Part shown: in pieces, positions 2,923 through 63,012 of the stretch
Layout of the letters: the number at the start of each line of letters is the position of its first letter
Position numbering within the stretch: position 1 is the first letter of the stretch
Source of the DNA: Nemertoderma westbladi
Lineage: Eukaryota > Animalia > Xenacoelomorpha
DNA: 64,000 nt
NCBI GenBank assembly: GCA_032718475.1
Contig: JAUCBJ010003949.1
Location: 42 to 64,041, forward strand
Direction of reading: 5' to 3'
The notes under the pieces: generated by a model
The model's database searches: none
Seen by the model: only the letters and a program-made list of their open reading frames with translations
What the model was told of the DNA's origin: nothing
Program-made: the position numbers and the translations under genes

Positions 2923-2957
2923 GTGAGAAACCCGTCTCTAGGAGAAAGGTAACACCA

Positions 2958-24164: not shown

Positions 24165-24360
24165 GGGGCGAGACACGTATGGCGAGCCATCAGCGAACTG
24201 ATATAATTATACTGGGCGAGACACGTATGGCGAGCCATCAGCGAACTGATATAATTATACTATGGCCGTTTTTCAAAAGTCTGTGTGTGTGTGTGTGTGT
24301 GTGTCGGAAGCCATTAATGTCGGAAGCCATAAATGTCGGAAGCCATAATCGAAGTTAATA
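24165..24360 (+). repeat. 48-bp tandem duplication followed by (TG)n and TCGGAAGCCA repeats; end of a dispersed repeat related to 58031-58090
   Basis: GGGCGAGACACGTATGGCGAGCCATCAGCGAACTGATATAATTATACT x2; CTATGGCCGTTTT.CAAAAGTCT.TGTGTG...TCGGAA is shared with 58031. Confidence 0.6.
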
Positions 24361-24742: not shown

Positions 24743-25376
24743 CTACTAGGATCGGCATGCTGCATTGCAGCTGCATTTTTAAGAATGCTGTGCCGGCTTG
24801 TCAACAAAATTGCACCGCCACAACTCCCTATCACCCATGACATTTGCTAGATCATCCGCATCTTTAAGGCCAGTGCCCTTTAAGATGCGTCTCAAGAAAG
24901 TCATGGGCTGTCCACCATGCTTATTCACTCCATGAGGCTGCCAAAGTACAAGATTATGCACTGGCTGGTCCTCACGGCGAAAGCAATGTCCTGCAAAGCG
25001 GAGGCGATTTTGTTCTAGTGTCAAGCTTGGGGGAACCAATGAGACACCTCCAATGTTATATAGTGTCTGGTTGGAGATGTGTGTATTGTACTTGACACAA
25101 TGAACCCGGCGTAGCATTCTTGTGAATGTGCCATCCAGAGATTTGGTGTCCTCGGCAGTTAGAGCCCGGCATGGACTCCCGTAGAGGAGTACTGGAACTA
25201 CTGCTGCTCTAAATAATCGGACCTTAGGTTTCCGATGAATTCTCGGTGACTTCCAAATCCTGGAAAGCCTATTCAAGGCTGCCCATGCCTTTCCCTTACG
25301 TATTCGAAGGTCCTCACCTGACTTCCGGATCCATGATCCCAGGTAACAGAAGTCGTCCACATGCTCAAGCATACCA
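24743..25376 (-). mobile_element. 5'-truncated copy of the same RTE family
   Basis: Near-identical to the reverse complement of ~17787-18420; TAG tail; probable TSD AGGAATA (24736-24742 and 25380-25386). Confidence 0.95.
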
Positions 25377-28267: not shown

Positions 28268-28443
28268 GTTAGTGTAAATTACATGTACCGGACTATCCTA
28301 AAGTATGTTACCGTCCTTCTTGGTCAATATCGATATTGATACCGGTACGCTTCTGCATGCATTGCAGTTTTTGTTGCTTCTCTGTGTACTGATATGAGTA
28401 ATATGGTTGCTTTTTAAATTCATATTTCGTGTATTTTTTTCAG

Positions 28444-28663
28444 ATAACGTGGTCCCAATTTAATAAAGATACTTTGGCGCATAAATCATTTACTTTTTGG
28501 GAATGGTTTCACGGAATATACGACTTACTCAAGCGACATCTTAAAGAGTTGTGGAACGATAAGCTTATTGTCGGCTTTTTAGGGAAATTGACCGCCCAAG
28601 AAGCGCTGCTCAATTGTCCACAAGATGGGACGTTTTTGCTTAGATTTAGTGACGGGGAACTGG
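28444..28663 (+). CDS. STAT: STAT exon (linker and SH2 start)
   Basis: ITWSQFNKD...FTFWEWF...LWNDKLIVGFL...DGTFLLRFSDGEL; ttcag / gtgagt boundaries. Confidence 0.93.
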
Positions 28664-28759
28664 GTGAGTGGAACGTTTTTACTTCCCTTAGAACGTTTTT
28701 GTGACTGCGAGCGAACATTATTTTAATTTATACAAATGTCTTACGTCTTCCAACTTTAG

Positions 28760-33069: not shown

Positions 33070-36000
33070 CGTTTATTCCTTCCCCCCCCCCCCCCCCCTT
33101 GTCTCCACCCGCCTCGTTTATTCTCGCCCCCTTGTCTCCACCCGCCTCGTTTATTCCCCCCCCCCCCCTTGTCTCCACCCGCCTCGTTTATTCCCGCCCC
33201 CTTGTCTCCACCCGCCTCGTTTATTCCCTCCCCCTTGTCTCCACCCGCCTCGTTTATTCTCGCCCCCTTGTCTCCCACCCGCCTCGTTTATCCCCGCCCC
33301 CTTGTCTCCCACCCGCCTCGTTTATTCCCGCCCCCTTGTCTCCACCCGCCTCGTTTATTCCCGCCCCCTTGTCTCCCACCCGCCTCGTTTATTCCCGCCC
33401 CCTTGTCTCCACCCGCCTCGTTTATTCCTTCCCCCTTGTCTCCACCCGCCTCGTTTATTCCCGCCCCCTTGTCTCCACCCGCCTCGTTTATTCCCGCCCC
33501 CTTGTCTCCACCCGCCTCGTTTATTCCCTCCCCCTTGTCTCCCACCTGCCTCGTTTATTCCCGCCCCCTTGTCTCCACCCGCCTCGTTTATTCCCGCCCC
33601 CTTGTCTCCCACCCGCCTCGTTTATTCCCGCCCCCTTGTCTCCCACCCGCCTCGTTTATTCCCTCCCCCTTGTCTCCACCCGCCTCGTTTATTCCCGCCC
33701 CCTTGTCTCCACCCGCCTCGTTTATTCCCTCCCCCTTGTCTCCACCCGCCTCGTTTATTCCCGCCCCCTTGTCTCCCACCCGCCTCGTTTATTCCCGCCC
33801 CCTTGTCTCCCACCCGCCTCGTTTATTCCCGCCCCCTTGTCTCCACCCGCCTCGTTTATTCCCTCCCCCTTGTCTCCACCCGCCTCGTTTATTCCCGCCC
33901 CCTTGTCTCCACCCGCCTCGTTTATTCCCGCCCCCTTGTCTCCACCCGCCTCGTTTATTCCCTCCCCCTTGTCTCCACCCGCCTCGTTTATTCCTTCCCC
34001 CTTGTCTCCACCCGCCTCGTTTATTCCCGCCCCCTTGTCTCCCACCCGCCTCCTTTATTCCCTCCCCCTTGTCTCCCACCCGCCTCGTTTATTCCCGCCC
34101 CCTTGTCTCCCACCCGCCTCGTTTATTCCCGCCCCCTTGTCTCCACCCGCCTCGTTTATTCCCGCCCCCTTGTCTCCACCCGCCTCGTTTATTCCCGCCC
34201 CCTTGTCTCCCACCCGCCTCGTTTATTCCCGCCCCCTTGTCTCCACCCGCCTCGTTTATTCCCTCCCCCTTGTCTCCCACCCGCCTCGTTTATTCCCGCC
34301 CCCTTGTCTCCCACCCGCCTCGTTTATTCCCGCCCCCTTGTCTCCACCCGCCTCGTTTATTCCCTCCCCCTTGTCTCCACCCGCCTCGTTTATTCCCGCC
34401 CCCTTGTCTCCCACCCGCCTCGTTTATTCCCTCCCCCTTGTCTCCCACCCGCCTCGTTTATTCCCGCCCCCTTGTCTCCCACCCGCCTCGTTTATTCCCG
34501 CCCCCTTGTCTCCACCCGCCTCGTTTATTCCCGCCCCCTTGTCTCCCACCCGCCTCGTTTATTCCCGCCCCCTTGTCTCCACCCGCCTCGTTTATTCCCT
34601 CCCCCTTGTCTCCACCCGCCTCGTTTATTCCCGCCCCCTTGTCTCCACCCGCCTCGTTTATTCCCGCCCCCTTGTCTCCACCCGCCTCGTTTATTCCCGC
34701 CCCCTTGTCTCCACCCGCCTCGTTTATTCCCGCCCCCTTGTCTCCACCCGCCTCGTTTATTCCCGCCCCCTTGTCTCCACCCGCCTCGTTTATTCCCGCC
34801 CCCTTGTCTCCACCCGCCTCGTTTATTCCCGCCCCCTTGTCTCCCACCCGCCTCGTTTATTCCCGCCCCCTTGTCTCCACCCGCCTCGTTTATTCCCTCC
34901 CCTTGTCTCCACCCGCCTCGTTTATTCCCGCCCCCTTGTCTCCACCCGCCTCGTTTATTCCCGCCCCCTTGTCTCCACCCGCCTCGTTTATTCCCGCCCC
35001 CTTGTCTCCACCCGCCTCGTTTATTCCCGCCCCCTTGTCTCCACCCGCCTCGTTTATTCCCGCCCCCTTGTCTCCACCCGCCTCGTTTATTCCCTCCCCC
35101 TTGTCTCCACCCGCCTCGTTTATTCCCGCCCCCTTGTCTCCACCCGCCTCGTTTATTCCCGCCCCCTTGTCTCCACCCGCCTCGTTTATTCCCGCCCCCT
35201 TGTCTCCACCCGCCTCGTTTATTCCCGCCCCCTTGTCTCCACCCGCCTCGTTTATTCCCGCCCCCTTGTCTCCACCCGCCTCGTTTATTCCCTCCCCCTT
35301 GTCTCCACCCGCCTCGTTTATTCCCTCCCCCTTGTCTCCACCCGCCTCGTTTATTCCCTCCCCCTTGTCTCCACCCGCCTCGTTTATTCCCGCCCCCTTG
35401 TCTCCACCCGCCTCGTTTATTCCCTCCCCCTTGTCTCCACCCGCCTCGTTTATTCCCGCCCCCTTGTCTCCACCCGCCTCGTTTATTCCCTGCCCCCTTG
35501 TCTCCACCCGCCTCGTTTATTCCCTCCCCCTTGTCTCCACCCGCCTCGTTTATTCCCTCCCCCTTGTCTCCACCCGCCTCGTTTATTCCCGCCCCCTTGT
35601 CTCCACCCGCCTCGTTTATTCCCGCCCCCTTGTCTCCACCCGCCTCGTTTATTCCCGCCCCCTTGTCTCCACCCGCCTCGTTTATTCCCGCCCCCTTGTC
35701 TCCACCCGCCTCGTTTATTCCCGCCCCCTTGTCTCCACCCGCCTCGTTTATTCCCTCCCCCTTGTCTCCACCCGCCTCGTTTATTCCCGCCCCCTTGTCT
35801 CCACCCGCCTCGTTTATTCCCGCCCCCTTGTCTCCACCCGCCTCGTTTATTCCCGCCCCCTTGTCTCCCACCCGCCTCGTTTATTCCCGCCCCCTTGTCT
35901 CCACCCGCCTCGTTTATTCCCGCCCCCTTGTCTCCCACCCGCCTCGTTTATTCCCGCCCCCTTGTCTCCACCCGCCTCGTTTATTCCCTCCCCCTTGTCT

Positions 36001-39000
36001 CCCACCCGCCTCGTTTATTCCCGCCCCCTTGTCTCCACCCGCCTCGTTTATTCCCGCCCCCTTGTCTCCACCCGCCTCGTTTATTCCCTCCCCCTTGTCT
36101 CCACCCGCCTCGTTTATTCCCTCCCCCTTGTCTCCACCCGCCTCGTTTATTCCCGCCCCCTTGTCTCCACCCGCCTCGTTTATTCCCGCCCCCTTGTCTC
36201 CCACCCGCCTCGTTTATTCCCGCCCCCTTGTCTCCACCCGCCTCGTTTATTCCCGCCCCCTTGTCTCCACCCGCCTCGTTTATTCCCGCCCCCTTGTCTC
36301 CCACCCGCCTCGTTTATTCCCGCCCCCTTGTCTCCACCCGCCTCGTTTATTCCCGCCCCCTTGTCTCCACCCGCCTCGTTTATTCCCGCCCCCTTGTCTC
36401 CACCCGCCTCGTTTATTCCCGCCCCCTTGTCTCCACCCGCCTCGTTTATTCCCGCCCCCTTGTCTCCACCCGCCTCGTTTATTCCCTCCCCCTTGTCTCC
36501 ACCCGCCTCGTTTATTCCCTCCCCCTTGTCTCCACCCGCCTCGTTTATTCCCGCCCCCTTGTCTCCACCCGCCTCGTTTATTCCCGCCCCCTTGTCTCCA
36601 CCCGCCTCGTTTATTCCCGCCCCCTTGTCTCCACCCGCCTCGTTTATTCCCTCCCCCTTGTCTCCCACCCGCCTCGTTTATTCCCGCCCCCTTGTCTCCA
36701 CCCGCCTCGTTTATTCCCGCCCCCTTGTCTCCACCCGCCTCGTTTATTCCCTCCCCCTTGTCTCCACCCGCCTCGTTTATTCCCGCCCCCTTGTCTCCAC
36801 CCGCCTCGTTTATTCCCGCCCCCTTGTCTCCACCCGCCTCGTTTATTCCCTCCCCCTTGTCTCCACCCGCCTCGTTTATTCCCTCCCCCTTGTCTCCACC
36901 CGCCTCGTTTATTCCCGCCCCCTTGTCTCCTACCCGCCTCGTTTATTCCCGCCCCCTTGTCTCCACCCGCCTCGTTTATTCCCTCCCCCTTGTCTCCACC
37001 CGCCTCGTTTATTCCCGCCCCCTTGTCTCCACCCGCCTCGTTTATTCCCGCCCCCTTGTCTCCACCCGCCTCGTTTATTCCCTCCCCCTTGTCTCCCACC
37101 CGCCTCGTTTATTCCCGCCCCCTTGTCTCCCACCCGCCTCGTTTATTCCCGCCCCCTTGTCTCCACCCGCCTCGTTTATTCCCTCCCCCTTGTCTCCACC
37201 CGCCTCGTTTATTCCCTCCCCCTTGTCTCCACCCGCCTCGTTTATTCCCGCCCCCTTGTCTCCTACCCGCCTCGTTTATTCCCGCCCCCTTGTCTCCACC
37301 CGCCTCGTTTATTCCCGCCCCCTTGTCTCCACCCGCCTCGTTTATTCCCTCCCCCTTGTCTCCACCCGCCTCGTTTATTCCCGCCCCCTTGTCTCCACCC
37401 GCCTCGTTTATTCCCGCCCCCTTGTCTCCACCCGCCTCGTTTATTCCCTCCCCCTTGTCTCCACCCGCCTCGTTTATTCCCTCCCCCTTGTCTCCACCCG
37501 CCTCGTTTATTCCCTCCCCCTTGTCTCCACCCGCCTCGTTTATTCCCCCCCCTTGTCTCCACCCGCCTCGTTTATTCCCGCCCCCTTGTCTCCACCCGCC
37601 TCGTTTATTCCCTCCCCCTTGTCTCCACCCGCCTCGTTTATTCCCGCCCCCTTGTCTCCACCCGCCTCGTTTATTCCCTCCCCCTTGTCTCCACCCGCCT
37701 CGTTTATTCCCTCCCCCTTGTCTCCACCCGCCTCGTTTATTCCCGCCCCCTTGTCTCCACCCGCCTCGTTTATTCCCGCCCCCTTGTCTCCACCCGCCTC
37801 GTTTATTCCCTCCCCCTTGTCTCCACCCGCCTCGTTTATTCCCTCCCCCTTGTCTCCACCCGCCTCGTTTATTCCCGCCCCCCTTGTCTCCACCCGCCTC
37901 GTTTATTCCCGCCCCCTTGTCTCCACCCGCCTCGTTTATTCCCGCCCCCTTGTCTCCACCCGCCTCGTTTATTCCCTCCCCCTTGTCTCCACCCGCCTCG
38001 TTTATTCCCTCCCCCTTGTCTCCACCCGCCTCGTTTATTCCCGCCCCCTTGTCTCCACCCGCCTCGTTTATTCCCGCCCCCTTGTCTCCACCCGCCTCGT
38101 TTATTCCCGCCCCCTTGTCTCCACCCGCCTCGTTTATTCCCGCCCCCTTGTCTCCTACCCGCCTCGTTTATTCCCGCCCCCCTTGTCTCCACCCGCCTCG
38201 TTTATTCCCGCCCCCTTGTCTCCACCCCCCTCGTTTATTCCCTCCCCCTTGTCTCCACCCGCCTCGTTTATTCCCGCCCCCTTGTCTCCACCCGCCTCGT
38301 TTATTCCCTCCCCCTTGTCTCCACCCGCCTCGTTTATTCCCGCCCCCTTGTCTACACCCGCCTCGTTTATTCCCTCCCCCTTGTCTCCACCCGCCTCGTT
38401 TATTCTCGCTCCCTTGTCTCCACCCGCCTCGTTTATTCCCGCCCCCTTGTCTCCCACCCGCCTCGTATATTCCCGCCCAATTGTCTCCACCTGCCTCGTT
38501 TATTCCCGCCCCCTTGTCTCCTACCCGCCTCGTTTATTCCCTCCCCCTTGTCTCCACCCGCCTCGTTTATTCCCTCCCCCTTGTCTCCACCCGCCTCGTT
38601 TATTCCCGCCCCCTTGTCTCCCACCCGCCTCGTTTATTCCCGCCCCCTTGTCTCCACCCGCCTCGTTTATTCCCGCCCCCTTGTCTCCACCCGCCTCCTT
38701 TATTCCCGCCCCCTTGTCTCCACCCGCCTCGTTTATTCCCGCCCCCTTGTCTCCACCCGCCTCCTTTATTCCCGCCCCCTTGTCTCCACCCGCCTCGTTT
38801 ATTCCCTCCCCCTTGTCTCCCACCCGCCTCGTTTATTCCCGCCCCCTTGTCTCCACCCGCCTCCTTTATTCCCTCCCCCTTGTCTCCACCCGCCTCGTTT
38901 ATTCCCTCCCCCTTGTCTCCACCCGCCTCGTTTATTCCCGCCCCCTTGTCTCCACCCGCCTCCTTTATTCCCGCCCCCTTGTCTCCACCCGCCTCCTTTA

Positions 39001-42000
39001 TTCCCTCCCCCTTGTCTCCACCCGCCTCGTTTATTCTCTCCCCCTTGTCTCCCACCCACCTCGTTTATTCCCTCCCCCTTGTCTCCACCCGCCTCGTTTA
39101 TTCCCGCCCCCTTGTCTCCTACCCGCCTCGTTTATTCCCTCCCCCTTGTCTCCACCCGCCTCCTTTATTCCCGCCCCCTTGTCTCCACCCGCCTCCTTTA
39201 TTCCCTCCCCCTTGTCTCCACCCGCCTCGTTTATTCCCTCCCCCTTGTCTCCCACCCGCCTCGTTTATTCCCGCCCCCTTGTCTCCACCCGCCTCGTTTA
39301 TTCCCGCCCCCTTGTCTCCACCCGCCTCCTTTATTCCCGCCCCCTTGTCTCCACCCGCCTCCTTTATTCCCTCCCCCTTGTCTCCACCCGCCTCGTTTAT
39401 TCCCTCCCCCTTGTCTCCCACCCGCCTCGTTTATTCCCGCCCCCTTGTCTCCACCCGCCTCGTTTATTCCCGCCCCCTTGTCTCCACCCGCCTCGTTTAT
39501 TCCCGCCCCCTTGTCTCCACCCGCCTCGTTTATTCCCGCCCCCTTGTCTCCACCCGCCTCGTTTATTCCCTCCCCCTTGTCTCCACCCGCCTCGTTTATT
39601 CCCGCCCCCTTGTCTCCACCCGCCTCGTTTATTCCCGCCCCCTTGTCTCCACCCGCCTCGTTTATTCCCTCCCCCTTGTCTCCACCCGCCTCGTTTATTC
39701 CCGCCCCCTTGTCTCCACCCGCCTCGTTTATTCCCGCCCCCTTGTCTCCACCCGCCTCGTTTATTCCCTCCCCCTTGTCTCCACCCGCCTCGTTTATTCC
39801 CGCCCCCTTGTCTCCACCCGCCTCGTTTATTCCCTCCCCCTTGTCTCCACCCGCCTCGTTTATTCCCTCCCCCTTGTCTCCACCCGCCTCGTTTATTCCC
39901 TCCCCCTTGTCTCCCACCCGCCTCGTTTATTCCCGCCCCCTTGTCTCCCACCCGCCTCGTTTATTCCCGCCCCCTTGTCTCCACCCGCCTCGTTTATTCC
40001 CGCCCCCTTGTCTCCCACCCGCCTCGTTTATTCCCTCCCCCTTGTCTCCCACCCGCCTCGTTTATTCCCTCCCCCTTGTCTCCACCCGCCTCGTTTATTC
40101 CCTCCCCCTTGTCTCCACCCGCCTCGTTTATTCCCGCCCCCTTGTCTCCCACCCGCCTCGTTTATTCCCGCCCCCTTGTCTCCCACCCGCCTCGTTTATT
40201 CCCGCCCCCTTGTCTCCACCCGCCTCGTTTATTCCCTCCCCCTTGTCTCCACCCGCCTCGTTTATTCCCTCCCCCTTGTCTCCACCCGCCTCGTTTATTC
40301 CCGCCCCCTTGTCTCCACCCGCCTCGTTTATTCCCGCCCCCTTGTCTCCACCCGCCTCGTTTATTCCCGCCCCCTTGTCTCCACCCGCCTCGTTTATTCC
40401 CTCCCCCTTGTCTCCACCCGCCTCGTTTATTCCCGCCCCCTTGTCTCCACCCGCCTCGTTTATTCCCGCCCCCTTGTCTCCACCCGCCTCCTTTATTCCC
40501 TCCCCCTTGTCTCCACCCGCCTCGTTTATTCCCTCCCCCTTGTCTCCACCCGCCTCGTTTATTCCCGCCCCCTTGTCTCCACCCGCCTCGTTTATTCCCG
40601 CCCCCTTGTCTCCACCCGCCTCCTTTATTCCCGCCCCCTTGTCTCCACCCGCCTCCTTTATTCCCTCCCCCTTGTCTCCACCCGCCTCGTTTATTCCCGC
40701 CCCCTTGTCTCCACCCGCCTCGTTTATTCCCGCCCCCTTGTCTCCCACCCGCCTCGTTTATTCCCGCCCCCTTGTCTCCACCCGCCTCGTTTATTCCCGC
40801 CCCCTTGTCTCCCACCCGCCTCGTTTATTCCCGCCCCCTTGTCTCCACCCGCCTCGTTTATTCCCGCCCCCTTGTCTCCACCCGCCTCGTTTATTCCCGC
40901 CCCCTTGTCTCCACCCGCCTCGTTTATTCCCTCCCCCTTGTCTCCACCCGCCTCGTTTATTCCCTCCCCCTTGTCTCCACCCGCCTCGTTTATTCCCGCC
41001 CCCTTGTCTCCACCCGCCTCGTTTATTCCCGCCCCCTTGTCTCCACCCGCCTCGTTTATTCCCGCCCCCTTGTCTCCACCCGCCTCGTTTATTCCCTCCC
41101 CCTTGTCTCCACCCGCCTCGTTTATTCCCTCCCCCTTGTCTCCACCCGCCTCGTTTATTCCCGCCCCCTTGTCTCCACCCGCCTCCTTTATTCCCTCCCC
41201 CTTGTCTCCACCCGCCTCGTTTATTCCCGCCCCCTTGTCTCCACCCGCCTCGTTTATTCCCGCCCCCTTGTCTCCACCCGCCTCGTTTATTCCCGCCCCC
41301 TTGTCTCCCACCCGCCTCGTTTATTCCCGCCCCCTTGTCTCCCACCCGCCTCGTTTATTCCCGCCCCCTTGTCTCCACCCGCCTCGTTTATTCCCTCCCC
41401 CTTGTCTCCCACCCGCCTCGTTTATTCCCGCCCCCTTGTCTCCACCCGCCTCGTTTATTCCCGCCCCCTTGTCTCCACCCGCCTCGTTTATTCCCTCCCC
41501 CTTGTCTCCCACCCGCCTCGTTTATTCCCTCCCCCTTGTCTCCACCCGCCTCGTTTATTCCCGCCCCCTTGTCTCCACCCGCCTCGTTTATTCCCTCCCC
41601 CTTGTCTCCACCCGCCTCGTTTATTCCCGCCCCCTTGTCTCCACCCGCCTCGTTTATTCCCGCCCCCTTGTCTCCACCCGCCTCGTTTATTCCCGCCCCC
41701 TTGTCTCCACCCGCCTCGTTTATTCCCGCCCCCTTGTCTCCACCCGCCTCGTTTATTCCCGCCCCCTTGTCTCCACCCGCCTCGTTTATTCCCGCCCCCT
41801 TGTCTCCACCCGCCTCGTTTATTCCCGCCCCCTTGTCTCCACCCGCCTCGTTTATTCCCGCCCCCTTGTCTCCACCCGCCTCGTTTATTCCCGCCCCCTT
41901 GTCTCCCACCCGCCTCGTTTATTCCCGCCCCCTTGTCTCCACCCGCCTCGTTTATTCCCGCCCCCTTGTCTCCACCCGCCTCGTTTATTCCCGCCCCCTT

Positions 42001-44223
42001 GTCTCCCACCCGCCTCGTTTATTCCCGCCCCCTTGTCTCCACCCGCCTCGTTTATTCCCGCCCCCTTGTCTCCACCCGCCTCGTTTATTCCCGCCCCCTT
42101 GTCTCCACCCGCCTCGTTTATTCCCTCCCCCTTGTCTCCACCCGCCTCGTTTATTCCCTCCCCCTTGTCTCCACCCGCCTCGTTTATTCCCTCCCCCTTG
42201 TCTCCACCCGCCTCGTTTATTCCCGCCCCCTTGTCTCCACCCGCCTCGTTTATTCCCGCCCCCTTGTCTCCCACCCGCCTCCTTTATTCCCTCCCCCTTG
42301 TCTCCACCCGCCTCGTTTATTCCCGCCCCCTTGTCTCCACCCGCCTCGTTTATTCCCGCCCCCTTGTCTCCACCCGCCTCGTTTATTCCCGCCCCCTTGT
42401 CTCCACCCGCCTCGTTTATTCCCGCCCCCTTGTCTCCACCCGCCTCGTTTATTCCCGCCCCCTTGTCTCCACCCGCCTCGTTTATTCCCGCCCCCTTGTC
42501 TCCACCCGCCTCGTTTATTCCCGCCCCCTTGTCTCCACCCGCCTCGTTTATTCCCGCCCCCTTGTCTCCACCCGCCTCGTTTATTCCCGCCCCCTTGTCT
42601 CCCACCCGCCTCGTTTATTCCCGCCCCCTTGTCTCCACCCGCCTCGTTTATTCCCGCCCCCTTGTCTCCACCCGCCTCGTTTATTCTCCGCCCCCTTGTC
42701 TCCCACCCGCCTCCTTTATTCCCTCCCCCTTGTCTCCACCCGCCTCGTTTATTCCCTGCCCCCTTGTCTCCACCCGCCTCGTTTATTCCCGCCCCCTTGT
42801 CTCCACCCGCCTCGTTTATTCCCGCCCCCTTGTCTCCACCCGCCTCGTTTATTCCCGCCCCCTTGTCTCCACCCGCCTCGTTTATTCCCGCCCCCTTGTC
42901 TCCACCCGCCTCGTTTATTCCCGCCCCCTTGTCTCCACCCGCCTCGTTTATTCCCGCCCCCTTGTCTCCACCCGCCTCGTTTATTCTCCCCCCCTTGTCT
43001 CCACCCGCCTCGTTTATTCCCTCCCCCTTGTCTCCACCCGCCTCGTTTACCCCCCCTCTCCCCCCCCGCCTCCCCCTTGTCTCCCACCCGCCTCGTTTAT
43101 TCCCGCCCCCTTGTCTCCCACCCGCCTCGTTTATTCCCGCCCCCTTGTCTCCACCCGCCTCGTTTATTCCCTCCCCCTTGTCTCCACCCGCCTCGTTTAT
43201 TCCCTCCCCCTTGTCTCCACCCGCCTCCTTTATTCCCTCCCCCTTGTCTCCACCCGCCTCGTTTATTCCCTCCCCCTTGTCTCCCACCCGCCTCGTTTAT
43301 TCCCGCCCCCTTGTCTCCCACCCGCCTCGTTTATTCCCACCCCCTTGTCTCCACCCGCCTCGTTTATTCCCGCCCCCTTGTCTCCACCCGCCTCGTTTAT
43401 TCCCACCCCCTTGTCTCCACCCGCCTCGTTTATTCCCGCCCCCTTGTCTCCACCCGCCTCGTTTATTCCCGCCCCCTTGTCTCCACCCGCCTCGTTTATT
43501 CCCGCCCCCTTGTCTCCACCCGCCTCGTTTATTCCCGCCCCCTTGTCTCCACCCGCCTCGTTTATTCCCGCCCCCTTGTCTCCACCCGCCTCGTTTATTC
43601 CCGCCCCCTTGTCTCCCACCCGCCTCGTTTATTCTCGCCCCCTTGTCTCCACCCGCCTCGTTTATTCCCTCCCCCTTGTCTCCACCCGCCTCGTTTATTC
43701 CCTCGTTTATTCCCGCCCCCTTGTCTCCCACCCGCCTCGTTTATTCCCGCCCCCTTGTCTCCACCCGCCTCGTTTATTCCCGCCCCCTTGTCTCCACCCG
43801 CCTCGTTTATTCCCGCCCCCTTGTCTCCACCCGCCTCGTTTATTCCCGCCCCCTTGTCTCCACCCGCCTCGTTTATTCCCTCCCCCTTGTCTCCACCCGC
43901 CTCGTTTATTCCCGCCCCCTTGTCTCCACCCGCCTCGTTTATTCCCTCCCCCTTGTCTCCCACCCGCCTCGTTTATTCCCGCCCCCTTGTCTCCACCCGC
44001 CTCGTTTATTCCCGCCCCCTTGTCTCCACCCGCCTCGTTTATTCCCTCCCCCTTGTCTCCACCCGCCTCGTTTATTCCCTCCCCCTTGTCTCCACCCGCC
44101 TCGTTTATTCCCGCCCCCTTGTCTCCACCCGCCTCGTTTATTCCCTCCCCCTTGTCTCCACCCGCCTCGTTTATTCCCGCCCCCTTGTCTCCACCCGCCT
44201 CGTTTATTCCCGCCCCCTTGTCT
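33070..44223. repeat. 11.15-kb minisatellite, 33/34-bp unit, roughly 335 copies
   Basis: Unit CCC(G/T)CCCCCTTGTCTCC(C)ACCCGCCTC(G/C)TTTATT; copy number estimated as length divided by unit size. Confidence 0.99.
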
Positions 44224-51002: not shown

Positions 51003-51742
51003 TGTGTGGAAGTCTTCGTACTGGGCATTATGTATTCGCCATGGTACCAGAGATCTCCCCGAAGGACTACACCATCTTTTGTAAGTTTATATATATTTTC
51101 GAGTCCTACCCAAAAGGTCTCTTCTATGTCACCGAAGCCTGATCGATAGTTCTACCAATCTTTATAGAAATCCTCGGAAGCGTCTACCCGTCTCTGTATT
51201 ACAACCCAAGGTTCACCAGGCACTTTGGTATCGCATCTGATAAATCCTCGAAGACCGTAATGGTGGTTGACTATAGCGGTGGTGTTTGCTGGAGTGTTTG
51301 GACAAACTAACGAAGAATGGTGCCGCAATCTTTCGTCAATATTTTCTGATAAATTGTCATCCATTCCGTTATTGTTATCTGTGAGTTTATTAATCTTTTT
51401 TGTTATGTCGTCTAATTCGTTATTCTTGGCTGTGAGTTTGTCGTTCAAGTCACGAATCTGTTCAGTAAACTTCTGTTGAAGTAAATAAGACGAAGCTGCT
51501 ATCGTCGCCCCCACCACCAACAACGCAACCAACAACACACCAATAATAACCACAACCCACCATCTTCTAGCTGAAACAACACGTCCCTCATTAACGCTAT
51601 CTCCTATATTCTGTGAGGACTGTGACGTGGTTGGTGAGGAAATTATCTTACCCGGTATGACGTCATAAACGCCTTCCTGATGATCTGGGATTTCATCCAA
51701 TGGTATCTCTGTTGTATCGCTATAGATTCCATTATGGGCCAT
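51003..51742 (-). pseudogene. Intronless type II transmembrane fibrinogen-related (FReD) protein gene, disabled
   Basis: Cytosolic N-terminus, TM (WWVVVIIGVLLVALLVVGATIAA), coiled coil, then FIRCDT...WVVIQRRVDASEDFYKDW* continuing past the TAG (51152-51154) as NYRSGFGDIEETFWVGLENIYKLT; then a frameshift (NAQYEDF) and truncation near 51000. Confidence 0.85.
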
Positions 51743-51909
51743 GATGAACAGTTAGTTCCGAAGAGTAAAATTCCGAAATCCTAAATGTACTAAGAACTAC
51801 TTAATAACTACTTGTGATAAATAATACTTTGTGTAAAGTAGCACAAATAAAGCCCCGAGGATCAGAACACTGTAAAGTACTTTGGAACAAGTATGTATAT
51901 AGTCTATAG

Positions 51910-52306
51910 TCTGGATGGCACATTCACAAGAATGCTACGCCGGGTACATTGTGTCAAGTACAATGCACACATCTCCAACCAGACACTATATAACATTGGA
52001 GGTATCTCATTGGTTCCCCCAAGCTTGACACTAGAACAAAATCGCCTCCGCTTTGCAGGACATTGCTTTCGCCGTGAGGACCAGCCAGTGCATAATCTTG
52101 TACTTTGGCAGCCTCATGGAGTGAATAAGCATGGTGGACAGCCTATGACTTTCTTGAGACGCATCTTAAAGGACACTGGCCTTAAAGATGCGGATGATCT
52201 AGCAAATGTCATGGGTGATAGGGAGTTGTGGCGGTGCAATTTTGTTGACAAGCCGGCACAGCATTCTTAAAAATGCAGCTGCAATGCAGCATGCCGATCA
52301 TAGTAG
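51910..52306 (+). mobile_element. Short 3' fragment of the young RTE family
   Basis: Near-identical to ~18024-18420; ends in TAGTAG. Confidence 0.95.
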
Positions 52307-52559: not shown

Positions 52560-53208
52560 CAAAAATTATTCAATTTGGACAAAGCCTTGTTACCATTGGT
52601 TTTCATTGACTTTGTTAAAAAAGCGCTACCCCCCATTAAGATCTTCTCTCTTACAAGTAACCTCAGAGTTTTGCCATGGCACATCTGTTTTCGTTTGGAT
52701 TTCTGGGGGATATGCCTCTTAGCTGATTCCTTGTGGGCTGTTATTATATTCTGGTATATTGAATCGGTAGACTGGTGTTCATCCATTGACTGAAGTGCTT
52801 CAAAGCGGTTTTGAACTTCTACTGTATAAGCATCCTTTACAGCATTGTCATTTCTGAGTTTCTCCCAGTCATAGTTGATTTGCTTGCTTGTCCTGGGTTT
52901 GATGGCTGTCAAACTGAGTCTGATCTCTGCAGTCACAATTCTGTGGTCCGAAGCAATTAGGTTGAACGAGCTGTATGCCTCGCAGTTGATCATGCTGTTT
53001 CTCCACGTTTGTTGATAAGGATGTAATATAAACCACGGAGTAATGTAAATCATGGAGTTTATATACCAAGCCCTAAACTTGTTAGAATTCTAGATAGCCT
53101 TCTTACGTGTCCCTGCAACCTCCTATGAAATACCTGGTTCGTTTGTTTCCCCTTTACTGTAACTCACTCTATATCACCCCACTCGCTCCACTCACCCCAT
53201 GTGTTAGT
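52560..53208 (-). mobile_element. Second RTE-like LINE family: 5' leader fused to the endonuclease C-terminus
   Basis: WRNSMINCEAYSSFNLIASDHRIVTAEIRL...YDWEKL...EVQNRFEAL (AP endonuclease SDH motif); paralogous to 57075-57957. Confidence 0.8.
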
Positions 53209-54451: not shown

Positions 54452-56635
54452 GAGACATAGGGAAACTGTGGTCGCTGTAACTGAACGAGGGGAGACATAG
54501 GGAAACTGTAAGGGTCGCTGTAACTGAACGAGGGGAGACAGGGAAACTGTGAGGGTCGCTGTAACTGAACGGGGGGAGGCCTAGGGAAACTGTAAGGGTC
54601 GCTGTAACTGAACGAGGGGAGACATAGGGAAACTGTAAGGGTAGCTGTAATTGAACGAGGGGAGACAGGGAAACTGTAAGGGTCGCTGAAACTGAACGAG
54701 GGGAGACAGGGTAACTGTAAGGGCCGCTGTAACTAAACGAGTGGAGACATAGGGAAACTGTAAGGGTCGCTGTAACTGAACGATGGGAGACATAGGGAAA
54801 CTGCATGGGACGCTGTAACTGAACGAGGGGAGACATAGGGAAACTGAAAGGGTCGCTGTAACTGAACGAGGGGAGACAGGGTAACTGTAAGGGTCGCTGT
54901 AACTGAACGAGGGGAGACATATGGAAACTGTAAGGGTAGCTGTAATTGAACGAGGGGAGACAGGGAAACTGTAAGGGTCGCTGAAACTGAACGAGGGGAG
55001 ACAGGGTAACTGTAAGGGCCGCTGTAACTAAACGAGTGGAGACATAGGGAAACTGTAAAAGTCGCTGCAACTGAACGGGGGGAGACAGGGAAACTGTAAG
55101 GGTCGCTGTAACTGAACGAGGGGAGACAGGGTAACTGTAAGGGCCGCTGTAACTAAACGAGTGGAGACATAGGGAAACTGTAAAAGTCGCTGCAACTGAA
55201 CGGGGGGAGACAGGGAAACTGTAAGGGTCGCTGTAACTGAACGAGGGGAGACATAGGGAAACTGTAAGGGTCGCTGTAACTGAACGATGGGAGACATAGG
55301 GAAACTGCATGGGACGCTGTAACTGAACGAGGGGAGACATAGGGAAACTGAAAGGGTCGCTGTAACTGAACGAGGGGAGACAGGGTAACTGTAAGGGTCG
55401 CTGTAACTAAACGAGTGGAGACATAGGGAAACTGCAAAAGTCGCTGCAACTGAACGGGGGGAGACAGGGAAACTGTAAGGGTCGCTGTAACTGAACGATG
55501 GGAGACATAGGGAAACTGCATGGGACGCTGTAACTGAACGAGGGGAGACATAGGGAAACTGAAAGGGTCGCTGTAACTGAACGAGGGGAGACAGGGTAAC
55601 TGTAAGGGTCGCTGTAACTGAACGACGGGAGACAGGGAAACTGTAAGGGTCGCTGTAACTGAACGAGGGGAGACATAGGGAAACTGTAAGGGTCGCTGTA
55701 ACTGAACGAGGGGAGACATAGGGAAACTGGGTCGCTGTAACTGAATGAGGGAAGACAGGGGAACTGTAAGGGTCGCTGTAACTGAACGAGGGGAGACATA
55801 TGTAAACTGTAATGGTCGCTGTAACTGAATGAGGGAAGACAGGGGAACTGTAAGGGTCGGTGTAACTGAACGGGGGGAGACAGGGAAACTGTAAGGGTCG
55901 GTGTAACTGAACGGGGGGAGACAGGGAAACTGTAAGGGTCGCTGTAACTGAACGGGGGGAGACATAGGGAAACTGGGTCGCTGTAACTGAACGAGGGTAG
56001 ACATAGGGAAACTGGGTCGCTGTAACTGAACGAGTGGAAGACAGAGGGAAACTGTAAGGGTCGCTGTAACTGAACGAGGGGAGACATAGGGAAACTGTAA
56101 GGGTCGCTGTAACTGAACGAGGGGAGACATAGGGAAACTGTAAGGGTCGCTGTAACTGAACGAGGGGAGACATAGGGAAACTGTAAGGGTCGCTGTAACT
56201 GAACGAGGGGAGACGTAGGGAAACTGAAAGGGTCGCTGTAACTGAACGATGGGAGACATAGGGAAACTGTAAGGGTCGCTGTAACTGAACGAGGGGAGAC
56301 ATAGGGAAACTGTAAGGGTCGCTGTAACTGAACGAGGGGAGGGTAGACAGAGAAACTGTAAGGGTCGCTGTAACTGAACGAGGGGAGACGGGGAAACTGT
56401 AAGGGTCGCTGTAACTGAACGAGGGGAGACATAGGGAAACTGTAAGGGTCGCTGTAACTGAACGAGGGGAGGGTAGACAGAGAAACTGTAAGGGTCGCTG
56501 TAACTGAACGAGGGGAGACGGGGAAACTGAAAGGGTCGCTGTAACTGAACGATGGGAGACATAGGGAAACTGTAAGGGTCGCTGTAACTGAACGAGGGGA
56601 GACATAGGGAAACTGTAAGGGTCGCTGTAACTGAA
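54452..56635. repeat. 2.2-kb minisatellite, 41-43 bp unit, about 50 copies
   Basis: GAGACA(TA)GGGAAACTGTAAGGGTCGCTGTAACTGAACGAGGG with recurring variant blocks. Confidence 0.97.
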
Positions 56636-57362
56636 ATCAAGCCGATATAAGGGATGGCTTGAGATTCAAGAAAAAAATGTTGATCCTTTTCAAGTTGGTC
56701 AACAGCTGGTAATCCACGGCGACGCATTCCTTGTGTTGGTTGCCAGAAAAGTAGAAGTCTTTACTTCTCCAGCAGTGCCCACTGAATCTTAACTTGCATT
56801 CACGGAGGGTGGTTGATACAGGTGGTATACAACCATAAAGCTCGGCGTTTGTCATGTGATGTCTACAGCTGATGTTTAGAGATGCCCTTAGTATTCTAGT
56901 CTTGTGTAACAACCATCAATTCGTTGGTCAAGTGAATTCGTCAGTGTCCAGGTCTCACCACCGTATAAGACTTTCCTATTACAACTAGAACACTGTGGCC
57001 AGAAGAGCTTGGTCTTCAGGTTCCTGGAGATGTCTGATTTCCAGATGGTATCCATTTTGATAGAGCTAGTGAATTCGCTTGCTTGTCCTGGGTTTGCTGC
57101 CTCTTCAACTTAGTGTGATCTCTGCAGTCACAATTCTGTGGTCCGAAGCAATTAGGTTGAACGAGCTGTATGCCTGGCAGTTAATCATGCTGTTTCTCCG
57201 CTTTTGTTGATAAGGATGTAATATAAATAAATTGGAGATGAGCTGTTGCAACTCTAATTAAAGGTGTAATATTATGGGAATATATGCAACTTAAGACTGC
57301 CCGTTCAATAGAAGTGGATTACGTGGGACTGTGAGTGTCAGGGGCTAGTGGCTGAGCTGGTT

Positions 57363-57401
57363 AGCGCTACTGATGTCAGGCCGAAACGTACGTATAGCGC
57401 T
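57363..57401 (+). ncRNA. Defective hammerhead copy (7-nt deletion removing the last core A and one strand of stem II)
   Basis: AGCGCTA CTGATG [AGGCCTG missing] TCAGGCC GAAACGTACGTA TAGCGCT. Confidence 0.8.
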
Positions 57402-57702
57402 GGCTCAACCCCTGTTGACGCGCTTTCTCATTTTTTTCCACTTCTGAACAAACACATAATATTACACCTTTAATTACAGTTGCAACAGCTCATCTCCAAT
57501 TTATTTGATTAATATCACCTGGCAGCAATACTCGAGCTGAATATTTATTTATTTGTACTTCCCTCCTGTTTCACTCTACTAGCATACTTGAGGCCGGTAG
57601 GTCCGCTGTTAGAGATAGAATATATGCAACTTAAGATTGCCCTTTCAATAGAAGTGGATTAGGTGGGAGTGTGAGTGTCAGGGGCTAGTGGCTGAGCTGG
57701 TT

Positions 57703-57748
57703 AGCGCTACTGATGAGGCCTGTCAGGCCGAAACGTACGTATAGCGCT
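57703..57748 (+). ncRNA. Minimal type I hammerhead ribozyme
   Basis: Stem I AGCGCTA/TAGCGCT; core CTGATGA (57710-57716); stem II GGCCT-GTC-AGGCC; GAAA; palindromic stem III ACGTACGT; GTA cleavage triplet 57739-57741. Confidence 0.92.
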
Positions 57749-60433
57749 GGGTCAACCCCCGGTGACGCGCTTTCTCATTTTTTCCATTTCTGAACAAACA
57801 CATAATATCACACATGTAATATAAACCACGGAGATTATATACCAAGCCCTAAACTTGTTAGAATTCTAGATAGCCTTCTATCATGTCCCTGCAACCACCT
57901 ATGAAAGCCCTGGCTCGTTTGTTTCCCTTTTAGTGTGTCTCACCCCATCTGTTAGTTTACACTAGAGTTTGTATGTTCCATTAATTTTTGTATTAGTAAA
58001 TATTTTCTTCTCCAAATAATTTTCCTTCTACTATGGCCGTTTTCCAAAAGTCTTTGTGTGTGTCGGAAACCATAATATTGTCGGAAGCCAATATCAGAAT
58101 AGGCCTATATAATAACTAGCCATAGTATAATTATAATTGTTCGCAAGATGGCTTGCAGCTTTTGCTGCCCGAAAGCCCCACTCGTGTTCTGTTACCTGTT
58201 ATTGATCTATTGTTTCTGTTCCTTTGTTTGTAAATTTGTATCATGTCTACGTATAAATAATAATCTGCCTATGTATAATCTATGTTGTCTGCTCCGCTCC
58301 CATTCGTATTTGCGTGGGGTCTTCGTGCAGCATCTGTGTAAACTGTCTTGCAGTTATAATAAATTTATCAATCCAAAAATTATTGGGCTTGGCATCAGCT
58401 GGTTGCTAGGAGACTGTAGGATGTATCAAGTGGGTTTGAAATTCAGCAATACCAGTACAATGCAGCAATAATGTGGCCTTGGGAAGTGTGGTAGGCCTAT
58501 TTCACTTTCAGCCATTCCAGCATTTCCAGGTTGCAGAGTTCAGAGTACGACACCAGTAATACTTATCTTAATTAATCTTATTAAACATATGTTTTACAGT
58601 ACGGTACCGGTACTGTTAGTAGTACAGAGTTACCGGTAACGTCTTCAGGTCGTTGGCGCCACCTGCCAATCATGCTCGGCCACGGCAACCATGCAGCCAT
58701 GGAAGTTTTGAAATTATGCGGACTTAAAACAGACTGACATATTGTCAGGTTGTACCAGCTGACCTTTATTCCATGTTCCGGTATCCACTCCTGCACTAGG
58801 TACCCCAACCGCCCAATACTGCAATACCAAGCAACGTTTTGGAAATGTACCGGTACTCAAACAACTCGCCATCAAGGCCACCGCCTATGTCTGTCGCAGT
58901 GTCTTTGGCGACCTCGACTTTTGGTATCGCTACTGCGCTAGCGCTACGGGCTAACTGGACTAACCGATGAGCGAGACCCGAGGACTGAAGAATGCATTGA
59001 TTTTTTTGAGTAGTTTGACTGTACTTCTATGACATCTATGCCAAGCTGCCAATGCGAAATTTTGTTTAAAGTAAAAGTTTGGTTAAATTTTCTTAATTAT
59101 TTATTTAAATTTCTTAAGTACCGATTTTGGGATAGAATTGCTCAATTTTAATCTGTATCTAATAACTGACCCTCGTCCTGCGCGATGGCTCCACGAACGT
59201 CCATCCATTTCCAATGTCATTGTACTTCATGGCAGTGTTTTGATGGCAAATCTGATGTTCTTCGTTACAGATGATATTCCATTGCCAAAGCGACCATGTC
59301 ACCCTGTTTGTAATGAGCTTTCAGTGTGCGGTGCGTGCGTTCATTGTGGCAATCTTTTAGTGTCTTTTTACATTTCAACAGGTTGGTTCTTCTTTCTTCT
59401 CTATAATTAATCTCCTAATTAATCTATTTCCAGGTTGTTTACATACTGTTGCTAGTTTATTTTATATAAATTTATAGATTAAAATAGATTGAAATTAAAT
59501 ATGTAAAAAATAATGCCCTGGAATGTTTTCCCCTTTTCATTTGAACTGACTTTGTGACTGACTGTAAAGTTGGGTGATCGGAAGATAAAGTATTGTGAGC
59601 AAACTATAAAGTTGTGTGACCAAAATTTGACGTTGTTGAAACCTACGGATTCAATAATTATTTACATTCCAGAATATAATATATATATATTTGAAACATT
59701 GTATTTAAGGTGAAAACAAACTATTTACTACCGTGCACAAAAATTATTAACCAACAAAATTTTTCACCATTTCGTGAATAAATATTACAAATATAAATTT
59801 ATATTTTCAATAATAAATATTAATAATGACTATATCATTATAGATATATGTATATATATATATATATATATATGAGATTCATTATATTTTTGATACGGTA
59901 ATAACATTATTGTGATTGATTTGTAAAATAAGCTGCCGATATGTCCATATGAATGTAACTAACCGACATTATACATACAGTAATGAAAAGTTAGTGAAAT
60001 TATATATTTATGTTGATAAACTACTTTCCGCTCATTGTTGTTAATGTTACACCTTTACTGTCTTCCTGCTTTAACCACGAAATAGATCTGTAATAAATAA
60101 AAATATTTTCGTTACTAAATTAACATGGTGCGTATAAGATTGCGAGACACGCTTCTGCTACAACTACAGATAATTAATTACTGATTCTAAGTGATAAGAT
60201 ACATGCAGAGCCTATAAATAATATAATACACTCTAATAAACTCTATCATTACAATATAATATCGTATAAACAATAATTATATCCAGGATATACACTATAC
60301 ACTACTGTCTTGTTCACGTCGTTATTTTGGTACTCTAATTAAAAAACACATTACATAAATTTTGAAACATAAAATAGATTTACCAAGTGGTGAATCGTCT
60401 ACATAAGTAATGATAACTATTAATTAATTCAAC

Positions 60434-61143: not shown

Positions 61144-62026
61144 ACTATATACTACGGCCTGTTATAGGTCACCTAAAGAGGTTGAAAAAAAGAGGCCAGT
61201 TTTTTTTTACAATATTATGATATTTTTATATGGGGAGAGTTCTGTAAATTTTCATTTGCTGCAATTTGGTTAATGGACGTATTTGAAGTCACCTCGTTAA
61301 GCTAGAAACTAAATTTTATGGTAGCTAGTGTTTTAGGTAGGTTTAGCTTGTAATTTCAACACTGCTTCCGACATCCTACTTCCTTCTATAAATATTTTGT
61401 AGTAGCTAGTTCTTATTATTATTTGTACAGAAAATCTCCAAGAACAAGTTAGCTTTTCATTTAAAAAAAATTATGTTCTAGAACAAATGTTTTTTGTTCT
61501 AGAACATTTTTTTAGAAAAAAATCTGGATTCTATTTATAACGCATGGAATCGTTCTAAAACGTGTTTAAAATCAATAAAAAAAAATTGTGAAAAAAAAAT
61601 TGTGAAAAATATTTTTAATTGGTTTTAAATAGAATCCAGATTTTTTTCTAAAAAATGGTCTAGAACAAAAATTATTTGTTCTAGAACTTATTTTTTAAAT
61701 AATGAATAGCTAACAGGCTCTAGAACATTTTCTATACAAATAGTAATAAGAAATAGCTACTACAAAATATTTATAGAAGGAAGTAGGATGTCGGAACCAG
61801 TGTCGAAATTACTAGCTAAACCTACCTAAAACACTAGCTATCATACAATTTAGTATCTAGCTTAACGAGGAGACTTCAATTACGACCGTTGACCAAATTG
61901 CAGCAAATGAAAATTTTTAGAACTCTCCCTATATCAAAATATTGTATTATCTAGCTATATTGTAAAAATAAACTGGCCTCTAATTTTCAGCCTCTTTAGG
62001 TGACCTAGCAGGTCGTAGTATATAGT
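61144..62026. mobile_element. 883-bp foldback MITE in the GPCR intron
   Basis: Arms ACTATATACTACG..TAGGTCACCTAAAGAGG..GAGGCCAGTTT / AAACTGGCCTC..CCTCTTTAGGTGACCTA..CGTAGTATATAGT; complementarity extends ~380 bp inward. Confidence 0.85.
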
Positions 62027-62787
62027 GGGTCATGATTACACTACTTTCTTAGAAATTGCTATGATACGAGATTCTAGAAGATATGTGTAGCAGTATATTA
62101 TGGTACAGCAAATATACCAAACTTGCTATGGTTTCTTTCACATGCAAAATTTGCAAAATTAAGAAAATCTGTATTGAAAAAAGATTAGCTGAAAATTGTA
62201 ACCATCAATCAATCAATCTGATTTAGACTAAGGAATTCTAAGTACTAACAAAAAATCTGACGATTTCGTTAAAATATTTATATTTTAGATGGGGGGTGTT
62301 ATGGGGGGGGGGGGGGGGGGTCACTATGCCCCCTATAATAAATTATAGATAATAATATAATTAAAATAAGATAATTAAACTATTGTTTTGGACCACAACC
62401 ATTTATAATTTTATTCCAGACCTATCTCAGAGGCAATTATTAATTGTTGTTGTTTATGTTAATTTACCAAACCCAATCTAACATTTTATCATGTGTTCTT
62501 AATTTTCTTCATACACAATTGTGTATTTAGTTTGTTGTTTAAATTTTGCTTTCACAAGTATTATTATTAATAGAAATTTCGCAAAATTGTACCTAAGTAG
62601 AGACATAGCCACCCGCCACACTAATTATGTCTAAATAATTTTTAGTCATAGGAATTTTACATTAAATTACAGTTACAGAACACCTATATCGTGGATTTTT
62701 AACATTTTTACTTTCCTGCCTGTATTGGCTATTCGTCATTGAAACCAATTTAGGTAGGCCAACTGTGTGAGTATAAGTACAACTTAC

Positions 62788-63012
62788 ATTTGAAAATATA
62801 GCAATGTATAATGGAGTTACCAGGAAACAGTAGACAACATATACTGTGAGGATGGTGTTTGCTAGTTTTTTCCCTTTTTTCATAGCTGATACAGCAGCAC
62901 TTCCTCCTGATTCAACAATTTTCTTTTGATGTTTTGAAAAGAAATTCATAATTCCATAGTAGAACATTGGTGTTAATAGGATTGGTAGAATTGTAATGAT
63001 GCAGTAATAAAT
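62788..63012 (-). CDS. Class A GPCR exon (TM5, ICL3, TM6)
   Basis: ctag then IYYCIITILPILLTPMFYYGIMNFF...KKGKKLANTILTVYVVYCFLVTPLYIAIFSN then gtaagt; 225 nt, phase 0 at both ends; TM5 LP...Y and TM6 CxxxxP-type motifs. Confidence 0.78.

Follow-up and report, generated by a model that had tools for sequence, protein, structure and literature searches.

A hammerhead ribozyme nested between the A and B boxes of a candidate Pol III promoter in an abundant, probably Penelope-mobilized repeat of Nemertoderma westbladi

Our analysis of a 64-kb window of Nemertoderma westbladi DNA (the whole stretch that was analyzed, 64,000 nucleotides) identified a non-coding repeat in which the A and B boxes of a candidate tRNA-type RNA polymerase III (Pol III) promoter enclose a hammerhead ribozyme, and the order A box, hammerhead, B box, T run holds throughout the repeat family. 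On balance, the window copy is probably a decayed member of an abundant repeat that is copied by Penelope-type machinery and whose Pol III boxes bracket a hammerhead that is predicted to cut only when two units are present in one RNA. The first-pass annotation of this DNA had located the A box, hammerhead, B box, and T run where we find them; the hammerhead extends over 57702-57749 (Table 1).

Table 1. Features of the insertion and of its nested promoter-ribozyme module, in window coordinates
Feature	Position	Strand	Basis or remark
Target-site duplication, left copy, 12 bp, AT-rich	57216..57227	+	Identical to 57814-57825
Inverted 5' piece, 49 nt	57228..57276	-	Reverse complement of 57455-57503, 1 mismatch in 49
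Upstream unit, 5'-truncated	57278..57474	+	Alignment, fold
Non-coding spacer and upstream part of repeat unit	57475..57676	+	High depth in family contigs; no long frame
Outer-stem 5' arm, predicted Pol III start region	57677..57688	+	Start inferred; 57677-57680 pairs with 57763-57766, P 0.55-0.76
A box (tRNA positions 8-19) TGGCTGAGCTGG	57689..57700	+	Strict consensus match
Type I hammerhead, 2-bp palindromic stem III, predicted site after A57741	57702..57749	+	Sequence, descriptor and shuffles, dimer fold
Hammerhead stem I, 8 bp	57702-57709 with 57742-57749	+	
Hammerhead core CTGATGA	57710-57716	+	
Hammerhead stem II, 5 bp	57717-57721 with 57725-57729	+	
Hammerhead GAAA	57730-57733	+	
8-nt palindrome ACGTACGT, holding the 2-bp stem III	57733-57740	+	
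B box (tRNA positions 52-62)	57749..57759	+	GGTTCRANNCC exact in family; this copy carries a mutation at 57751
T6 run, predicted Pol III terminator	57778..57783	+	T-run count per unit
AC-rich tail, likely reverse-transcription start sites	57784..57813	+	Family copies end at 57797-57798, 57808, 57812-57813
Target-site duplication, right copy, 12 bp	57814..57825	+	Perfect match to left copy

With respect to the ribozyme, the CUGANGA core, the GAAA, and the NUH are all present together with stems I and II, placing the motif among type I hammerheads of the short stem III class. The stretch 57702-57749 is the sole match of a relaxed hammerhead descriptor in the window; none of 200 shuffled sequences gave a match as strong, and any relaxed match appeared in only two of them. 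Rfam returned no match for the module at gathering score and, at a relaxed threshold, only a weak match to Hammerhead_3 (18.3 bits, E 0.53).

With respect to the promoter, the strict A-box consensus is matched at just two places in the window, both strands considered: at 57689 and at its tandem twin at 57349. The T6 run starts 18 nt past the B box, and each unit has one run of at least four T. The A box and the B box are spaced 48 nt apart. This spacing falls inside the range of 31 to 93 nt given for yeast in the accessible text of PMC4937561, where runs of T4 to T6 are described as terminating transcription, with frequent read-through. When the 339-nt unit, written in majority letters, was shuffled, a strict A box 25 to 70 nt before a B box was never recovered in 20,000 sequences, and a loosened A box with a B box was recovered in 190 of 20,000. 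Two such boxes at workable spacing with a T run downstream are the pattern by which tRNA-derived SINEs are recognized, and this pattern is found here in full. In majority letters, the boxes are furthermore predicted to pair with each other (57693-57697 with 57750-57754, P about 0.59), which lengthens stem I. The single-strand fold of 57670-57790 is no better than that of shuffles (z -0.25).

What survives of a tRNA in this module is the layout of promoter and terminator. In tRNA-equivalent numbering, the 5' strand of hammerhead stem I covers positions 20a-27, and position 52 is the last one taken up by its 3' strand; a stem I placed in this way is incompatible with the D and T stems. Stem I had originally been assigned to the site of the anticodon stem; this exact position did not hold, but the core and stems II and III do take the place of the anticodon and variable arms. 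Two of four pairs remain in the D stem and three of five in the T stem. ARAGORN detected no tRNA cloverleaf in the module, and a functional tRNA gene is ruled out by the lack of a cloverleaf with D, anticodon, T, and acceptor stems. Calls made by ARAGORN under relaxed settings (threshold 85 with introns) were rejected, as shuffles that keep the boxes also gave a call in 130 of 300 cases; since these shuffles equal the relaxed calls, there is no support for reading the hammerhead as a tRNA intron. The D-arm region may resemble that of tRNA-Asn or tRNA-Leu. A 7-nt direct repeat flanks the core on both sides, its 5' copy sitting in a palindrome, and we speculate that a short duplication of the old D-arm strand could have created stem I in one step.

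Our view of the family comes from contigs of five public sequencing runs (X1 to X5) aligned to the unit; two others, X6 and X7, gave next to no matches. The DNA runs placed 2,579 (X1), 1,615 (X2), and 1,372 (X3) contigs on one unit, X1 and X2 representing one sample, and DNA run X4 placed 98 contigs on a wider stretch. In X1, the unit exceeds the flank in summed depth by a factor of about 10,000; this factor is no measure of copy number, but the family likely comprises thousands of copies. At 57751, T accounts for 99.9% of depth in X1-X3 and 99.6% in X4, giving an exact GGTTCRANNCC. The single mismatch to the B-box consensus recorded in the first-pass annotation is therefore true of the window but private to its copy.

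The window copy belongs to a 586-bp insertion (57228-57813) made of 1.55 tandem units of about 345 nt and an inverted 5' piece. A paralogous RTE-type fragment at 52872-53167 represents the empty site, with the 12-mer of the target-site duplication present once (53021-53032). The insertion interrupts a decayed LINE fragment, the adjoining part of which matches the window's reverse-transcriptase frame at 36 to 40%; from its translation and from motifs familiar to us, we take this fragment to be of RTE type. The second unit spans 57618-57813, and the distance from cut site to cut site is 347 nt, with unit sizes of 339 to 347 nt across our analyses and a GC content of 0.43. In the upstream unit, whose A box lies at 57349, the palindrome (57386-57393) and the site after A57394 are intact; this unit also has a 7-nt deletion in the hammerhead core and stem II, a C at T54 of the B box, and a T7 run (57431-57437). 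A complete hammerhead in two consecutive units, which marks an "active" locus according to Li et al. (10.64898/2026.07.22.740005), is absent at this locus. With T54 of the B box gone from either unit and the upstream core broken, the copy is likely not a working master, and the loss of T54 likely leaves the locus silent for Pol III. No long reading frame was found in the insertion, and none of the 10 window frames scanned matched a GIY-YIG family. Elsewhere in the window, exons resembling STAT, fibrinogen-C, and a rhodopsin-type receptor indicate an animal host.

The insertion begins 71 nt ahead of its first A box. Its template therefore did not start at the predicted Pol III start of that unit, but was a multimer of greater length, a circle, or an RNA initiated farther upstream.

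At the other end, contig ends cluster at 57797-57798 (15 to 40 contigs per run and place) and 57812-57813 (11 to 28), as well as at 57808, and mixed AT-rich sequence lies beyond them. These family 3' ends are 56 to 72 nt past the cut site, and 18 of the 21 letters at 57793-57813 are A or C. Passengers of LINEs such as tRNA-derived SINEs carry poly(A) or a simple repeat at their 3' end; no such end was found for the family among the contig ends of X1-X4, which are fixed internal AC-rich sites. According to the accessible text of PMC11167929, the Penelope-like PAc cuts AT-rich DNA in vitro, and its reverse transcription begins at two internal AC-rich sites that lie next to each other and define the genomic tail, with uncut RNA as the main template. 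Partial tandems, 5' truncation, an inverted 5' piece, and a tail are listed as hallmarks of Penelope elements in PMC8557442, and animal retrozymes have been proposed to be Penelope passengers (10.64898/2026.07.22.740005). The repeat described here displays a partial tandem, a 5' inversion, clustered AC-rich 3' ends, and an AT-rich target. From this insertion anatomy and the AC-rich 3' ends, we infer that the family is likely mobilized by Penelope-type machinery.

Folding predicts that the hammerhead cuts only as a dimer, in line with the first-pass annotation. In a monomer RNA, stem III forms with P <=0.02; the dimer hammerhead has an energy of -46.4 kcal/mol versus a cofold minimum of -46.6, and two monomers have -35.6. 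In the unconstrained fold of the locus's own tandem RNA, an inter-unit hammerhead forms with P about 0.9 (helix P 0.85-0.92), combining the intact core of the second unit with the site of the first, after A57394. The reciprocal half, cutting after A57741, does not form in this fold, and for this locus the cut is predicted after A57394 instead of after A57741, the site that had been put forward for a cleavage assay. That a cut would separate the boxes, as had also been suggested, agrees with our predictions: the cut unit RNA would start with the B box and end with the A box. In the accessible sources, short-stem hammerheads are described as needing dimers and cutting weakly (PMC4209133), and Penelope hammerheads as cutting poorly or needing protein (PMC4209133, PMC11167929).

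Considering these data, we propose the following life cycle for the repeat. TFIIIC would bind both boxes, and Pol III would start just upstream of the A box. One-unit transcripts would remain uncut because their stem III has only 2 bp, and transcripts reading 15 to 30 nt beyond the T6 run would extend into the tail. There, a reverse transcriptase borrowed from a Penelope element may start internally at a nicked AT-rich site and generate short copies that carry both boxes. When tandem copies give rise to longer RNAs, these would pair their palindromes and be cut to a unit of about 345 nt, B box first and A box last, which an RtcB-type ligase may close, rejoining the boxes. Uncut multimers or circles would yield longer, partial-tandem insertions such as 57228-57813. 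In this scenario, the ribozyme is likely a switch that trims multimers rather than a gate for every new copy. Against Pol III multimers, the T6 run should stop most transcripts, and the next hammerhead requires about 300 nt of read-through; for yeast Pol III, 50 to 200 nt is described as typical (PMC4937561).

The same observations open the way for a bolder hypothesis, which we regard as rather unlikely. In this scenario, pairing of the A and B boxes in a Pol III RNA would extend a D-arm-derived stem I, the dimer cut would permute the unit to the order B box then A box, and a 341-nt circle would restore the promoter, with the family multiplying via the circle and the ligation joint lying inside the promoter. 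If true, promoter and catalyst would be interlocked in this repeat, which would then represent a natural tRNA-ribozyme chimera.

A possible RNA form of the unit was found in run X5, for which the RNA label is a guess and the organism label differs from those of the other runs. It provides a single contig of 371 nt at a depth of 5.5. The 30 letters at its start and the 30 at its end map to one place, giving a 341-nt cycle in which the boxes and the core are all intact. At 57737 and 57624, the contig has variants of low frequency in the DNA runs (2-5% and 5-9%, respectively), and thus does not simply reflect the commonest genomic words of the organism behind those runs. A circle would explain the contig, as would a tandem transcript of one master or DNA of a related species, and a cyclic contig can also come from tandem DNA or RNA. 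The neighboring repeat at 58020-58190 has no cover in X5, a weak control given that this repeat is far shallower in X1 and X3. A circular RNA of about 345 nt is plausible.

The first-pass annotation had gone further and held that the promoter is restored in tandem or circular copies alone, a claim that our data do not support. Taken strictly, the family would then propagate only via a cut and re-ligated circle or tandem, the cut parting the A box from the B box, which we consider improbable. The cyclic contig of X5 and the start of the insertion upstream of the predicted start site both speak for such a cycle, and RtcB is reported to close retrozyme monomers in vitro (PMC7229834). Furthermore, both units have letters at 57724 and 57800 that account for about 1% of family depth or less, as expected if one template had been copied repeatedly round, and these letters favor a single template lineage. 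On the other hand, 11 events in 197 columns separate the two units, and two of these events are at common family variants, which weakly hints at a mixed tandem template; the difference from the inverted arm and the duplication (1/61) is not significant (P 0.30). Among the pieces listed (26 rows), records 14 and 15 of X3 and 19 and 20 of X4, for example, have both boxes and unlike flanks on both sides, so solo copies can hold a complete promoter. A circle would also give rise to such copies, so the strict version forbids little. In addition, no pile-up of 5' ends at 57742 is seen among the loose ends listed, and PAc is described as copying uncut RNA (PMC11167929). Since the promoter acts as DNA, cutting matters only if the cut RNA is the template.

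The anatomy of the insertion would be the same if the unit were the terminal repeat (pLTR) of a protein-coding Penelope-like element and the short copies were its truncated ends, and the accessible text of 10.64898/2026.07.22.740005 describes frog retrozymes and pLTRs as related. This origin also appears improbable to us: tandem junctions in other copies, the X5 contig included, connect the tail with the spacer of the unit itself, the frame from the ATG in the hammerhead core closes after 26 codons, and no junction to a reading frame occurs among the loose ends listed.

The variation within the family bears on yet another scenario, in which the boxes were inherited from a tRNA-derived SINE and are now unused, transcription depending on Pol II or on read-through from the host. 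Statistics do not establish conservation of the boxes and the core: of 19 polymorphic sites, one is located in the 52 constrained positions versus 2.9 expected (P 0.18; boxes alone, P 0.44), in a test of low power that omitted all indels and six sites with the window copy as outlier. In the core, no variant reaches 3% in X1-X3. Unused boxes would suit the nonsignificant result, the high depth at which upstream sequence is carried, and the position of the terminator before the tail, and newt satellite transcripts are described as Pol II products (PMC6765202). However, the majority has both boxes exact even though the D, T, and acceptor stems have decayed, and the sole A-box variant at >=3%, G/A at 57696 (26-44% in X1-X3, 90% in X4), keeps the consensus purine. 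Depth also doubles or more near 57684 in X1, X3, and X4, in summed contig depth that is unreliable. A smaller step is seen near 57745, and we take neither step as proof of a start or a cut. Relic boxes therefore seem to us quite improbable.

The remaining common variants either lie in loop 2 or loop 3 or produce a G-U pair within stem II. Among the rows listed for X4, variants in the core at 57716 (9% of depth) and 57732 (8%) and in stem II at 57726 (15%) are carried by two contigs each, and these core- or stem-breaking variants stay below 1% in X1 and X3. A hammerhead that is inactive in vivo and only a structural or protein-binding tag would match the single cut among nine frog retrozyme dimers in vitro (10.64898/2026.07.22.740005) and the PAc cut site without reads in RNA-seq (PMC11167929), but is highly improbable given the rarity of core variants in X1-X3, a comparison that is underpowered, and given the loop-3 variant at 57737 (2-5%), which retains the dimer helix through G-U pairs.

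Returning to the Penelope-copied repeat with a dimer-dependent hammerhead, its membership in the non-LTR retrozymes or Penelope passengers is likely. With animal non-LTR retrozymes, as portrayed in the accessible texts of Cervera and de la Pena 2020 (PMC7229834) and Li, Clavereau and Pollet 2026 (10.64898/2026.07.22.740005), it shares a non-coding tandem unit of 150-450 bp, a type I hammerhead, a GC content below 50%, a target duplication of more than 4 bp (here 12 bp), and likely mobilization by Penelope elements. Unlike in those retrozymes, tRNA-type boxes here bracket the ribozyme, and whereas retrozyme circles are reported to be highly self-paired (PMC7229834), the circular unit in window letters folds no better than 100 shuffles (z -0.2, 56% paired). 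The words "tRNA," "promoter," and "box" are absent from the main text of 10.64898/2026.07.22.740005 as far as it is accessible, and the accessible part of PMC7229834 makes no mention of a Pol III promoter.

Like the hammerheads in the pLTRs of Penelope and Poseidon elements (PMC11167929, PMC4209133, PMC8557442, in their accessible text), the one described here has a short palindromic stem III and predicted dimer cutting, and its insertion likewise combines a partial tandem and 5' inversion with AC-rich tail ends and an AT-rich target. Unlike those elements, the repeat has no reading frame, and its internal promoter is tRNA-type. The SINE-like Schistosoma repeats Sm-alpha and Sj-alpha resemble it in carrying a hammerhead within a tRNA-derived Pol III repeat for which tandem copies are said to be needed (PMC6765202, PMC2770079), and in Sm-alpha the cutting of multimers is described as displacing the promoter (PMC6765202). 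There, however, the promoter precedes the hammerhead (PMC6765202), whereas the B box here lies 3' of the cut site. Furthermore, tRNAscan is reported to call many copies of these Schistosoma repeats tRNA-Gln, in contrast to the missing cloverleaf here, a comparison made by layout. Helenus TRIMs (Kojima 2024, PMC10886601) are similarly non-autonomous and have tRNA-derived A and B boxes in their repeat, but they are of LTR type with 5-bp duplications, and in the accessible text the word "hammerhead" appears once, in the reference list.

In viral and metagenome collections, which are mostly microbial and leave other animals outside their scope, an A box with a hammerhead core was found at 3 viral and 41 metagenome loci; we reject these as chance matches, as none of the 44 had both stems or a downstream B box. 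Circularly permuted tRNA genes are reordered through a circular intermediate. They encode functional tRNAs, unlike the repeat described here, which has its elements in normal genomic order and makes no tRNA. The likeness lies in the cut unit RNA, which would have its B box before its A box as in those genes (PMC3978253).

The first-pass annotation had called the architecture undescribed, and in the open-access literature covered by our searches (listings, abstract openings, and accessible text) we found no account of a hammerhead placed between an A box and a B box; the dependence on tandem copies has already been stated for Sm-alpha. The animal retrozyme texts, where accessible, name no promoter, and the role of Penelope hammerheads is unsettled in the accessible literature. 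The repeat packs a candidate promoter, a ribozyme, a terminator, and a reverse-transcription start into about 135 bp, and this compactness makes both the promoter and the hammerhead-role questions addressable in one small cassette. In conclusion, the repeat is likely of a known retrozyme or Penelope-passenger kind, a similar tandem logic has been published for Sm-alpha, and what appears new in comparison is a candidate promoter nested around the hammerhead.

Among contigs of the public DNA run X4 aligned to the wider stretch around the repeat unit, a single contig spanning 57682-57798 has a depth of 1,108, and through equal depths across tables, rather than from the contig's letters, it was assigned an insertion of 4 nt following 57708, along with changes at 57743, 57762, and 57764. 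It appears to represent a variant subfamily of the hammerhead repeat, in which predicted stem I (57702-57709 with 57742-57749) would apparently carry a bulge.

Another short, high-copy repeat lies beside the insertion at 58020-58190 and ends abruptly at 58188; it also occurs at 24230-24329. The 43-bp satellite stops directly ahead of the RTE-type fragment interrupted by the insertion. The array of 33-bp units has one open frame of about 3,800 codons, which likely stays open only because the unit has no stops in that frame.

Features of the window
Positions	Feature	Details
2206-4634	Frames with motifs	Cysteine-histidine knuckles, aspartic-protease-like motif
16384-18381	Reverse-transcriptase frame	666 codons, PF00078
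24230-24329	Short repeat	High-copy
24782-25375	3' fragment of PF00078 frame	97-99% amino-acid identity (both fragments)
28402-28701	Host exon	STAT linker/SH2
33090-44223	C/T-rich array	33-bp unit, 11 kb, 96-97% matches
51155-51751	Host exon	Fibrinogen-C (weak)
51908-52267	3' fragment of PF00078 frame	
54452-56635	Satellite	43-bp unit, about 52 copies
58020-58190	Short repeat	GT microsatellite, internal tandem units
61165-62007	Long inverted-repeat element	Arms 310 nt, 87%
62665-63012	Host exon	7tm_1 (weak)

The knuckles and protease-like motif at 2206-4634 suggest a decayed LTR retrotransposon; a Pfam scan of two frames within that interval returned no match. The inverted-repeat element is MITE-like. 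The reverse-transcriptase frame and its two 3' fragments are a young LINE family.
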